A DNA stretch of 8,052 nucleotides from a virus (lineage: Duplodnaviria > Heunggongvirae > Uroviricota > Caudoviricetes), in the IMG/VR virus record IMGVR_UViG_2713896909_000008. The stretch is one strand, 5' to 3'. The notes under the pieces were generated by a model, which saw nothing but the letters and a program-made list of their open reading frames with translations, had not been told where the DNA came from and ran no database searches. A program made the position numbers and the translations under genes. The first letter of the stretch is position 1. Every line of letters starts with the position of its first letter. Of the stretch, positions 3,198 through 5,548 are shown piece after piece.

Positions 3198-3900
3198 ATG
3201 AGTAAAGTCTTTATTTGCGCCGCCATTCCGGACGAACAGGCAATAAAGGAAGAAGGTGCAATTGCTGTAGCCACTGCCATTGAAGCCGGTGACGAACGCC
3301 GCGCCCGTGCCAAATTTACCTGGCAATTCCTGGAGCAATATCCGGCTGCTCAGGACTGCGCTTATAAATTTCTTGTCTGCGAGGATAAACCCGGCATGCC
3401 CCGCCCTGCTATCGACTCCTGGGATACCGAATATATGCAGGAAAACCGCTGGGATGAGGAATCCGCTTCCTTTATTCCGGTCGAACCAGAATCCGATCCG
3501 ATGAACGTCAATTTTGACAAGCTGTCCCTTGAAGTACAGAACGCGGTCCTGGTTAAGTTCGGTACATGTGAAAACATCACCGTTGATATGGTGATTAGTG
3601 CTCAGGAATTACTGCAGGAGGACATGGCAACATTCGACGGGCATATCGTTGAGGCATTGATGAAAATGCCTGAAGTTAACGTCATGTATTCAGAGCTTAA
3701 GCTGCTCGCCATCGGGTGGGTTAAACATAAATGTAAGCCGGGTGCAAAATGGCCTGAGATCCAGACAGAATTACGCACCTGGAAAAAACGTCGCGAAGCC
3801 GAACGCAAAGAAACCGGGAAATACACGTCTGTTGTTGATCTTGCCCGCGCCAGAGTCAACCGGCAGAACACTGAAAACTCAGTAGCGACCCCCCCCCCCC
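3198..3900 (+). CDS. RecE N-terminal-like protein, 5' portion, running into the assembly gap
   Basis: ORF from ATG 3198 is open up to the poly-C/N gap. Contains ..ARAKFTWQFLEQY.., which from memory resembles the RecE N-terminus (..EIDFTWSERYQL..). Frame relation across the gap cannot be known. Confidence 0.55.
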
Positions 3901-3961
3901 NNNNNNNNNNNNNNNNNNNNNNNNNNNNNNNNNNNNNNNNNNNNNNNNNNNNNNNNNNNNN
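3889..3961. other. Assembly gap: 12-nt poly-C run followed by 61 N
   Basis: Directly visible: C x12 at 3889-3900, then N x61 at 3901-3961, interrupting an open reading frame on both sides. Confidence 0.95.
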
Positions 3962-5548
3962 CGCAAACAGCCTGATGCCCTTCGCTACGACCGCCAGACT
4001 ATTTTTGGCCTTGTCCGTGAACGTCCGATCGACATTCACAAAGCCCCTGTGGCACTGAACAAATACATTACTGAATACCTGACTACAAAGGGCGTGTTTG
4101 AAGATGAAGGAACAAATCAGAGCGCAACTGATACTCTCTCGTCGCCAGTACCAGAAACTGATGCAGTGGAAACGGCAATTCCGGACAACGAAAAAACCGA
4201 ATGCAAAGTGGAAGTCGAACCATCTGTAGAGCGTGAAGGGCCGTTCTACTTCCTCTTCACCGACAAGGATGGCGAAAAATATGGTCGCGCAAACAAACTT
4301 TCTGGTCTGAATAAGGCGCTGACTGCAGGGGCTACTGAAATCACGAAAGAAGAATATTTTGCCCGCAAAAACGGTACATACTCAGGTTCACAACAAAATA
4401 CTGGTGCATCTGACACGACCGCACAACCAGAGCCGGTAAAAGTTACCGCTGAAGAAGTAAACAAAATTATGCAGGCAGCCAATATCAGCCAGCCTGACGC
4501 CGATAAGTTGCTTGCTGCCTCTCGCGGAGAATTTGTTGCAGGGATTAGCGACCCGAATGATCCGAAATGGGTGAAGGGGATTGAAACCCGCGACTCTGTA
4601 AACCAGAACCAGCAAGAATCGGAACAGAACGACCAGAAAACGGAACAAAACAGCCCAAATGCGCAACAAAACGAGCCAGAAACGAAACAGGTTGAACCAG
4701 TAGCGCAACAGGAGCCGGAAAAAGCCTGCACCGCCTGCGGTCAGACCGGCGGCGGTAGCTGCCCTGATTGTGGTGCGGTGATGGGCGACGCAACATACCA
4801 GGAAATATTCGATGAAGAGAATCAGCCTGAAGTTCAGGAAAATGATCCGGAGGAAATGGAAGGCACTGCGCATCAGCACAAGGAGAACTCTGGCGGCAAT
4901 CAGCATCATGCCAGCGATAGTGAAACTGGCGAGGCGTCAGATCCCTTAATTAAGGTGAACGGTCACCATAATCTCACATCCACCAGCAGAGCGGGGATTC
5001 ATCTGATGATCGACCTTGAAACCATGGGAAAAAATCCTGATGCCCCGATTATCTCAATAGGTGCAATATTTTTCGATCCGCAAACCGGAGATATGGGACC
5101 GGAATTTAGTAAGACTGTCGATCTGGAAACTGCTGGCGGAGTCATTGATCGGGACACCATTAAATGGTGGCTTAAGCAATCACGCGAAGCGCAATCTGCC
5201 ATTATGACCGATGAAATCCCGTTAGATGATGCACTGTTACAATTGCGGGAATTTATCGACGAAAACTCCGGTGAATTTTTTGTTCAGGTCTGGGGAAATG
5301 GAGCAAACTTCGACAACACGATTTTGCGCCGTTCATACGAACGGCAGGGGATCCCCTGCCCGTGGCGTTACTACAACGATCGCGATATACGCACAATCGT
5401 TGAGCTGGGGAAAGCCATAGACTTCGATGCCAGAACTGCTATCCCATTCGAAGGTGAGCGCCATAATGCACTTGATGACGCTCGTTACCAGGCAAAATAC
5501 GTTTCAGCTATCTGGCAAAAACTGATCCCGAGTCAGGCTGATTTTTAA
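3962..5548 (+). CDS. 3' portion of the large gene: acidic Q/E-rich linker, CxxC-x7-CxxC zinc ribbon, C-terminal DnaQ-like DEDDh 3'-5' exonuclease domain
   Basis: Frame is open from the first base after the gap ([12 protein letters not shown]...) through the track ORF 4049..5548. Zinc ribbon [15 protein letters not shown] at 4727-4771. Exo I MIDLETMG (from 5005), Exo II [12 protein letters not shown], Exo III [9 protein letters not shown]. An internal ATG at 5005 with a GGGGA Shine-Dalgarno could also express the domain alone. Confidence 0.7.
   Translation, partial: [528 protein letters not shown]

Follow-up and report, generated by a model that had tools for sequence, protein, structure and literature searches.

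Positions 3198-5548 of the window (the whole 8,052-nt stretch of DNA analysed here, from IMG/VR record IMGVR_UViG_2713896909_000008) read as a single prophage gene of ~823 codons, split by an assembly gap. With a probability of roughly three in four, we take its product to be an early-left-operon exonuclease of a Qin/mEp460-type lambdoid prophage, one that combines a YdfE head, a RecE-type scaffold and a DEDDh tail and works beside RecBCD/RecA. The gene is already known and annotated, and is a common prophage exonuclease of the YdfE-head family. The PHROG 2082 profile matches it end to end (positions 1-823 of 823), phage mEp460_ev081 encodes the same protein (92% protein identity), and nucleotide identity to the gene of WP_062860013.1 is 99.4%. 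It is annotated in mEp460 as 'Exodeoxyribonuclease encoded by cryptic prophage CP-933P', and in RefSeq as 'exonuclease' or '3'-5' exonuclease'.

Continuity of the gene across the assembly gap

Two open stretches without internal stops (3198-3900 and 3962-5548) flank a run of 61 N. That they form one ORF, as the earlier note had supposed, is supported by the E. coli chromosome NZ_CP039404.1 (99.4% nucleotide identity), where an uninterrupted 823-codon CDS runs through in frame. In the intact reference CDS (2472 nt, L001), the two window parts start at offsets 0 and 885, so both are in frame; the flanks of the gap are placed at offsets 703 and 885. The final 12 nt 5' of the gap are a poly-C run that mismatches the reference and is probably a contig-end artefact. 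The sequence is also repeated, with a median of 2 and a maximum of 10 similar places per positive genome, which fits an assembly break at this point. Many of the database homologues are 'partial' proteins of short contigs, and a word-indexed protein search with the middle region returned only fragments of at most 310 aa, mostly 'partial'.

The two ORFs could instead be separate or broken in this genome, i.e. a pseudogene like K-12 ydfE. The gap does conceal ~182 nt, the adjacent kil is frameshifted, and truncated copies do occur, e.g. K-12 ydfE itself, which is interrupted by IS2. Against this, neither flank contains a stop and both keep the reading frame of the intact reference (99.4% identity), 3485 genomes contain a match over 80% or more of the query, and the poly-C and N block resemble a scaffolding artefact; we consider a broken gene very improbable.

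Table 1. Features of the exonuclease gene and its downstream neighbours, in window coordinates
Feature	Position	Strand	Remarks
Exonuclease gene 5' part, YdfE-type head	3198..3900	+	codons 1 to ~234; ORF and translation
Assembly gap, 61 N	3901..3961	.	hides ~182 nt (codons ~235-295), start of RecE-like helical module
Helical module A, remainder	3962..4096	+	aa ~296-340 of module 236-370; distant RecE 278-351 homology
Small beta-rich insert (GPFYF...GRANK)	4229..4381	+	aa ~385-435 (371-450 at widest)
Helical hairpin module B	4427..4606	+	aa 451-510; near-identical to RecE 454-490
Q/E-rich linker	4607-4726	+	5' flank of zinc ribbon
CxxC-x7-CxxC zinc-ribbon motif	4727..4771	+	read from sequence
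Acidic linker	4772-4981	+	3' flank of zinc ribbon
End of K-12 recE homology (...SDPLI vs RecE ...ADPVI590)	4948..4952	+	DNA and protein alignments
Chi octamer GCTGGTGG	4980..4987	-	~30 nt beyond scaffold/tail junction
Predicted DEDDh 3'-5' exonuclease domain (Rv2179c-like/DexA-like)	5000..5515	+	DLET, NFD, HNALDD
Exonuclease gene stop codon	5546..5548	+	ORF
DUF4224 xis-like gene	5601..5810	+	PF13986 E 2e-15; accompanies DEDDh tail
Tyrosine integrase (341 aa)	5810..6835	+	PF00589, PF22022

Head, middle and tail of the protein

Over its first ~235 residues, the protein shares 86% identity with ydfE (b1577), a pseudogene of the K-12 Qin prophage. PF27430/PF27432 (YdfE_N/YdfE_C) are the precomputed domains of homologues 85-99% identical to the window head, and the domain assignment is made through these near relatives. 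The head comprises an alpha/beta subdomain (aa 1-95) and an all-helical subdomain (aa 105-205), and the AF2 model has a mean pLDDT of 87; a fold search gave no informative match for the head. The earlier note had described a RecE-like N-terminal region and quoted two segments of it. One of these, FTWQFLEQY, belongs to the YdfE head, which has no significant similarity to RecE by segment BLAST (E 1.1), and RecE's own head domain, PF06630 (residues 2-178 of RecE), was not found in the window protein. That the YdfE and RecE heads are distantly homologous, also considered, is unsupported (pairwise E ~1). The likening of this segment to RecE probably came from 'exonuclease VIII' annotations on YdfE-type proteins.

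The RecE-like description does hold further along. BLASTP aligns residues 262-625 to RecE 277-590 (E 2e-59), and by these alignments the RecE resemblance is confined to the middle of the protein. It is strongest for residues 451-635, which have 56-87% identity to RecE 454-591 depending on the segment: helical hairpin module B, the stretch in which the second quoted segment sits, is 86% identical to RecE 454-490 (37 aa, E 3e-20), the zinc ribbon 87% to RecE 512-541, and the acidic linker 56% to RecE 542-591. The CxxC-x7-CxxC ribbon and its Q/E-rich and acidic linkers are present as reported, spanning 4607-4981. Residues 236-370 show distant homology to RecE 278-351 (25% identity, E 5.6e-6 by segment BLAST), and the helical module A within them is confidently folded (pLDDT 90-97 over aa 240-340). 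The beta-rich insert that follows (pLDDT 93-95) gave no RecE match in segment BLAST and is absent from K-12 RecE; it is found also in YdfE-head relatives. The region around the zinc ribbon is predicted to be disordered, and in the predicted model the folded modules are linked by long disordered stretches. At the DNA level, the alignment with K-12 recE shows, as judged by eye, ~85-90% identity between roughly 4500 and 4950 and only noise beyond. The homology ends where the PD-(D/E)XK domain of RecE (PF12684, residues 615-850) starts.

In place of that domain, the window protein has a match to PF16473 that covers profile positions 2-177 of 177 (E 3.9e-67, at 225.8 bits; cut-off 27). The three catalytic motifs already recognised in the C-terminal part are all there and intact: Exo I (DxE) as DLET, Exo II (D) as NFD and Exo III (H-x4-D) as HNALDD. 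Exo I and Exo II align with both T4 DexA and phage g341c gp30, and Exo III with g341c gp30 only, since the DexA fragment used ends at residue 162. The tail is 55% identical to g341c gp30 across the whole DEDDh domain, and in a PDB search matches 8KEL/8KEN (E 1.3e-6), deposited as 'Exodeoxyribonuclease' (227 aa); we take it as T4 DexA, given this length and the residue numbers used in PMC12153337. With the full-length model as query against the PDB, Foldseek matched the tail weakly to RNase T and Orn and found nothing for head or middle; low model confidence in the DEDDh part reflects a shallow alignment there. PF12684 is not matched by the window protein, and the tail has no similarity to RecE 595-866. 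The proposal that the RecE nuclease domain is replaced is thus borne out, and with respect to RecE this is a genuine tail swap. From its domain the tail would be a 3'-5' exonuclease; the founding member of PF16473 is an exoribonuclease according to the Pfam name of the family, which makes RNA a possible substrate.

Prevalence, mosaicism and neighbourhood

A search of 5426 complete E. coli genomes found similar sequence in 4797. At megablast sensitivity, the DEDDh tail was detected in 4067 of the 5426 genomes (8063 places) and the K-12-type RecE tail in 1736 (1827 places); within E. coli, the canonical RecE tail is no more common than the DEDDh tail. A polarity-switching domain swap had been suggested for this gene, and while the swap relative to RecE stands, it is not a one-off. 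The family is mosaic, with two head types and at least three tail types among the architectures from an exhaustive representative search (queried with the window's own fragment). YdfE or RecE heads pair with DEDDh, PD-(D/E)XK or other tails, some proteins are without a tail, and some relatives with the same YdfE head carry the PD-(D/E)XK tail. In one hybrid prophage (L008), with a RecE head and a DEDDh tail, a 96.3% match to Rac extends up to 6820 and a 95.5% match to the window type starts at 6386. This Rac x Qin-type crossover falls within the shared middle segment of ~435 nt, which indicates that tail swaps arise by homologous recombination between prophages. A literature search turned up nothing relevant joining RecE with DEDDh/Rv2179c, or ydfE with exonuclease.

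The third tail type, of ~180 aa, bears the motif DGEAxKKSLTDAxKKALSxLGFSAD, and its phage homologues are inconsistently annotated. Its match to the Rad52 profile PF04098 is weak and below threshold (E 0.027), and a sequence search of the PDB gave no match; it is at most a candidate annealase.

The genes lie here in the order dicA-like repressor, DicF, kil, exonuclease, xis, int; the kil beside the exonuclease gene carries a frameshift. No recT was found in the window, and the xis-like gene and int lie directly 3' of the exonuclease gene, all as first described. L001 and the hybrid L008 share this exonuclease-xis-int order. In all four related records examined xis and int directly follow the exonuclease without recT, and no annealase gene was found in L001, L003 or L004; phages of this type are normally arranged without recT. 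The DEDDh tail and the DUF4224-xis/int module move together.

The window has two Chi sites, both on its minus strand, where 0.14 would be expected. The one just past the scaffold/tail junction (Table 1) is kept at the same codon in relatives (L001:6002-6009, L003:8904-8911, L004:6067-6074). In mEp460, the only carrier phage whose whole genome was read, 9 Chi sites occur for an expected 1.35, and no annealing protein or RecBCD inhibitor is annotated anywhere in that genome.

Proposed role and comparison with known systems

Taking domains and context together, the protein would most likely be a tethered nuclease that trims 3' ends, in Chi-rich lambdoid phages dependent on RecBCD. The tail would remove nucleotides from DNA 3' ends with two metal ions, while the RecE-type scaffold would tether or target it to the partner or DNA site used by the N-terminal region of RecE. 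Since mEp460 is Chi-enriched and has no annotated annealase or RecBCD inhibitor, the enzyme would work alongside host RecBCD/RecA, either to trim 3' tails or flaps or to control ends, and would not be half of a RecET-type two-component recombinase. DnaQ-like nucleases do occur in lambdoid Rec modules (Zheng et al. 2025, PMC12315714), and for a link with recombination there is the 55%-identical stand-alone homologue in the g341c module, near erf. Counted against a recombination role, the same authors explicitly exclude DnaQ-type nuclease genes adjoining int from the Rec-module genes, and report that such 3'-5' exonucleases usually inhibit recombination (PMC12315714).

The gene could alternatively serve defence, as a superinfection-exclusion nuclease whose DexA-like domain degrades incoming modified phage DNA in the manner of EcD (HREX), and the match of the tail to the presumed DexA structures is in keeping with this. 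The neighbours typical of the operon include dicB, kil and sieB (in relatives), which are known for host-modifying or exclusion functions. Bacterial DexA homologues come from Escherichia more often than from any other genus, and plasmid-borne EcD (HAK9828821.1), an E. coli homologue reported to degrade incoming modified phage DNA, protects against T4 (Kang et al. 2025, PMC12153337). A protein of the EcD type would be marked by loss of the D90 tetramer contact of DexA (Ala in EcD), with Trp W152, said to recognise 5hmC in DexA, and Asp D169 retained. The window protein, however, is without the diagnostic Ala, keeping Asp at the D90 position, and has Tyr at that of W152 (in the alignment reaching DexA residue 162). 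Simple defence would also leave unexplained the 640-residue scaffold, common to a bona fide recombination nuclease, and the free-living phage mEp460 keeps the gene as well; we regard a defence function as unlikely. We give very little credence to a functional RecE equivalent with switched polarity, the earlier note's reading, that would form a two-component recombinase with an annealing protein supplied in trans. It agrees with the common RecE scaffold, the RecE slot downstream of kil, and the same-head relatives that bear a PD-(D/E)XK tail. In the lambda Red and RecET mechanism, though, annealing proteins need the 3' strand, the very strand that a 3'-5' exonuclease degrades. An annealase gene was found neither in the window, L001, L003 and L004 nor in the mEp460 genome, and for the NCBIfam exodeoxyribonuclease VIII equivalog (NF007259, cut-off 1269) the window protein scores 266.2 bits, compared with 1830.3 for K-12 RecE.

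Nature joins the RecE scaffold to a nuclease of predicted opposite polarity, in a form at least as common in E. coli as K-12-type RecE. The tails seen on the scaffold are a 5'-3' exonuclease, a 3'-5' exonuclease, the ~180-aa domain with a weak Rad52-like motif, or none. We tentatively suggest, as a possibility that may well prove wrong, that the RecE-type non-catalytic region, with its head, helical modules and zinc ribbon, serves lambdoid early-left operons generally as a delivery scaffold, with interchangeable tails and a common partner or DNA site, and that its DEDDh version cooperates with RecBCD/RecA in annealase-less, Chi-rich phages. If it is, natural tail swaps such as that of L008 make the function of the first ~590 residues of RecE testable; a review still describes the function of the N-terminal two-thirds of RecE as unknown, and notes that full-length RecE improves linear-linear recombineering (PMC11611040). 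The carrier phages appear to rely on host RecBCD and Chi, and a 3'-5' exonuclease could tune or oppose recombination. The 'exodeoxyribonuclease VIII' label on many database records of these proteins is misleading.

Compared with RecE of Rac (K-12 b1350), the window protein shares the early-left operon slot downstream of kil, a similar length (823 vs 866 aa) and the non-catalytic middle of hairpin, zinc ribbon and acidic linker (segments 86%, 87% and 56% identical). It differs in its head (YdfE_N/C, where RecE has PF06630), in its additional beta-rich insert, in the recT that does not follow it, and in its tail, which is DEDDh (predicted 3'-5') where that of RecE is PD-(D/E)XK (5'-3', PF12684). 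With the YdfE-family exonucleases (PHROG 2082) it shares the full-length family and the context dicB/kil - exo - xis - int. It does not differ from them in kind; the window copy is interrupted by the gap and lies beside a frameshifted kil. T4 DexA, EcD (HREX) and the Rv2179c family (PF16473) have the same DEDDh fold family and catalytic residues, but are free-standing proteins of ~170-230 aa, whereas the window protein, at 823 aa and with several modules, carries the domain as its tail. The phage g341c gp30, a DnaQ-like nuclease of P22-like phage Rec modules (epsilon34 type, Zheng et al. 2025), likewise has a 55%-identical DEDDh domain encoded by a gene of a lambdoid early-left operon; it is, however, a stand-alone protein of ~182 aa encoded between ssb and abc2 and adjoining erf, whereas the window domain is fused to a RecE-type scaffold and adjoins xis-int, away from any annealase, SSB or anti-RecBCD partner.

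A single gene with a RecE-type middle

The two open stretches flanking the N run (see table) map in frame to offsets 0 and 885 of an uninterrupted 2472-nt CDS ('exonuclease', WP_062860013.1) in NZ_CP039404.1, the best megablast match among complete E. coli genomes (99.4% identity; locus L001). The 61 N thus represent 182 nt, and the stretches almost certainly form a single 823-codon gene. Just ahead of the N block, 12 bases of poly-C (3889-3900) stand where the closest relative has AAAATCCCCCCAG; this resembles an artefact of a contig end or of scaffolding rather than genuine sequence. 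Numerous database homologues are 'partial' proteins from contigs <1 kb, which fits a multi-copy prophage gene breaking short-read assemblies.

The earlier note had read the product as RecE-like at its N-terminus, with the RecE nuclease domain replaced by a zinc ribbon and a DEDDh exonuclease. K-12 recE was fetched and the proteins were compared by BLASTP, then segment by segment. Residues 262-625 align with RecE 277-590 (E 2e-59), so the proposed similarity holds for the middle region, or scaffold, but not for the head, which includes the segment FTWQFLEQY once taken as RecE-like. By its sequence the head is not RecE: it shares 86% identity with ydfE, an IS2-truncated pseudogene of the K-12 Qin prophage, and its Pfam counterparts are the recently added families YdfE_N (PF27430) and YdfE_C (PF27432). 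DNA identity to recE is ~85-90% (by eye) over ~4500 to ~4950 and collapses beyond, the homology breaking at ...SDPLI here versus ...ADPVI590 in RecE, within the boundary region of the RecE C-terminal nuclease fragment, described as residues 564-866 (review PMC11611040). Because homology ends this abruptly, just upstream of the PD-(D/E)XK domain of RecE (PF12684, residues 615-850), which has no counterpart in the exonuclease tail, we judge the replacement of that domain to be real and sharply bounded.

The tail matches PF16473 (Rv2179c-like 3'-5' exoribonuclease) end to end (E 3.9e-67), and the three DnaQ-type motifs reported previously are all there, DLET, NFD and HNALDD being Exo I, II and III respectively. 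Exo I and II align with PDB chain 8KEL/8KEN, taken to be T4 DexA (E 1.3e-6), and all three motifs with gp30 of phage g341c (55% identical). The CxxC-x7-CxxC ribbon, read in the sequence, was also found, alongside Q/E-rich and acidic linkers. The earlier observation is confirmed, and its interpretation was right in part.

The NCBIfam equivalog model for exodeoxyribonuclease VIII gives the protein 266 bits, far short of its cut-off of 1269; the protein is not RecE. Database names for DEDDh-tailed relatives vary: 'exodeoxyribonuclease VIII', 'exonuclease VIII', 'exonuclease', '3'-5' exoribonuclease' and 'exonuclease VII' (the PHROG 607 label); the ExoVIII labels are misleading, resting on the common middle region only.

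Features of the window (nt) and of the 823-codon product (aa)
Feature	Position	Strand	Remark
DicF small RNA	2621-2672	+	Rfam RF00039, 76.4 bits (gathering score 48); upstream of kil
kil	~2852-3074	+	frameshift: one extra A near 2960 in A-run, versus 99%-identical L001 copy
Exonuclease gene	3198-5548	+	
Left open stretch	3198-3900	+	
N run	3901-3961		
Right open stretch	3962-5548	+	
CxxC-x7-CxxC	4727-4771	+	
Chi octamer	4980-4987	-	~30 nt past scaffold/tail junction
Chi octamer	5669-5676	-	
DUF4224 xis-like gene	5601-5810		directly 3' of exonuclease gene
Tyrosine integrase	5810-6835		next after xis-like gene
tRNA-Ser remnant	6888-6953	-	3' ~65 nt only
LEM-3-like GIY-YIG gene	7079-7903	+	PF22945, E 2.4e-14
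Head	aa 1-235		K-12 RecE: no similarity (E 1.1)
Middle	aa 236-370		RecE 278-351: 25% identical, E 5.6e-6
Middle	aa 371-450		K-12 RecE: no counterpart
Middle	aa 451-510		RecE 454-490: 86% identical, E 3e-20
Zinc ribbon	aa 546-575		K-12 RecE: 87% identical
Acidic linker	aa 576-635		K-12 RecE: 56% identical
Tail	aa 636-823		K-12 RecE: no similarity

A small mosaic family and a natural hybrid

When the middle region was run exhaustively against 1.84 billion representatives with phmmer, only 117 proteins came up; the family is therefore small. Among the 42 long relatives, classified by module exemplars and Pfam, all four head-tail combinations are present: YdfE head with DEDDh tail, as here (P0121, P0125, P0147), RecE head with DEDDh tail (P0123, P0151), the canonical RecE head with PD-(D/E)XK tail (P0198, P0199, P0204, P0209) and YdfE head with PD-(D/E)XK tail (P0161, P0190, P0206). 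Some family members have a short C-terminus only, and others a third tail (C-terminal ~180 aa; P0165, P0175, P0185, P0201, P0224, P0227, P0228) behind a YdfE or RecE head. This tail bears the motif DGEAxKKSLTDAxKKALSxLGFSADxxLGLYD, with a sub-threshold Rad52_Rad22 match (E 0.027) and no sequence match in the PDB. One gene carrying it (L010:4001-6337) comes right after a gene with weak similarity to Gam. Pseudomonas and Vibrio phages have homologues that stand alone, named inconsistently as 'exonuclease', 'DNA binding protein' or 'DNA repair protein'. The third tail may represent an annealase, or else what Zheng et al. (2025, PMC12315714) call 'RecE-2 without nuclease'.

In P0123 the head matches residues 1-230 of K-12 RecE at 100% identity, and the tail shares 97% identity with that of the window gene. 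Its locus (L008; GCA_039763085.1, ABSJHA010000028.1, gene at 5001-7418) is a natural hybrid prophage: it matches Rac (96.3%) up to position 6820, with a Rac-type immunity region (sieB, kilR, ydaE) and the RecE head, and matches the window-type prophage (95.5%) from position 6386, with the same DUF4224 xis gene, the same 341-aa integrase and mtfA beyond the DEDDh tail. The matches overlap, so the crossover lies inside the ~435-nt middle segment common to recE and the window gene, which is direct evidence that tail swaps arise via homologous recombination between resident prophages.

Prophage setting and Chi sites

In the window, as the earlier note had observed, the xis-like gene and int follow the exonuclease directly, with no recT. 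This arrangement, previously thought unusual, is not: the order repressor ... dicB or kil - exonuclease - xis - int recurs, with no annealase in the exonuclease neighbourhood, in phages mEp460_ev081 (same protein, 92% identity) and vB_EcoS-813R8 (a more distant version) and in L001. The window also carries a dicA-like repressor, a cro-like gene, a DUF1391 gene and kil; DicF upstream of kil makes the operon dicBF type, and the region is the early-left arm of a Qin/mEp460-type lambdoid prophage. Between DicF and kil no intact dicB ORF was seen in the window, and L001 is annotated there with a dicB fragment. The kil product is an FtsZ inhibitor of the Rac KilR type, and the frameshift could be a true pseudogene or a homopolymer sequencing error. 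Identity to L001 ends at 6953; L001 continues with a complete tRNA-Ser, then mtfA. ARAGORN found no tRNA in the window, and the partial tRNA-Ser, the end of identity and the different gene beyond suggest a second element inserted at the same tRNA-Ser site, in tandem with the window's prophage.

The window holds 2 Chi octamers (0.14 expected). The one near the junction recurs at the equivalent codon (~635) of three related genes (L001:6002-6009, L003:8904-8911, L004:6067-6074); lying next to a mosaic joint, it may be there by chance or may promote exchange. The mEp460 genome has 9 Chi sites (1.35 expected; 7 on the top strand), and its annotation includes no annealase or RecBCD inhibitor, agreeing with the 'no Rec module, many Chi' class, described as relying on host RecBCD (Zheng et al. 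2025, PMC12315714).

Likely function and comparison with known nucleases

Our best reading is that the exonuclease would be a scaffold-tethered 3'-end-trimming nuclease working beside host RecBCD/RecA. The scaffold, common to the proven recombination nuclease RecE, points to a role in the metabolism of DNA ends or in recombination, as does the stand-alone tail homologue in the phage g341c recombination gene cluster, between ssb and abc2 and adjoining erf. Caution is due, since a 3'-5' exonuclease cannot produce the 3' overhang used by annealases. DnaQ-like nucleases do occur in lambdoid Rec modules, which also favours such a role; the same study left DnaQ-type genes adjoining int out of its Rec-module genes and noted that 3'-5' exonucleases usually inhibit recombination, both further grounds for caution (Zheng et al. 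2025, PMC12315714). The main rival to the end-trimming role is that of a defence nuclease like EcD, a DexA homologue from E. coli that reportedly excludes T4 (PMC12153337). The exonuclease keeps Asp at the position where EcD has Ala, and the position of the 5hmC-recognising Trp is Tyr here.

This prophage gene is common, known and already annotated; its product is matched over its whole length (1-823 of 823) by PHROG 2082 ('exonuclease'). By megablast, sequence resembling it occurs in 4797 of 5426 complete E. coli genomes (median 2 places per genome having any, maximum 10), with >=80% of the query covered at some place in 3485 of them. What remains of interest is what the exonuclease and the RecE-type scaffold common to both proteins do, and the natural tail swaps offer a way to test this. 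The DEDDh tail was found in 4067 genomes (8063 places) and the RecE K-12-type nuclease tail in 1736 (1827 places), counts sensitive to ~>=85% identity, outside which diverged PD-(D/E)XK tails fall. On these counts RecE, whose own head (PF06630) is absent from the exonuclease, is the minority form in E. coli.
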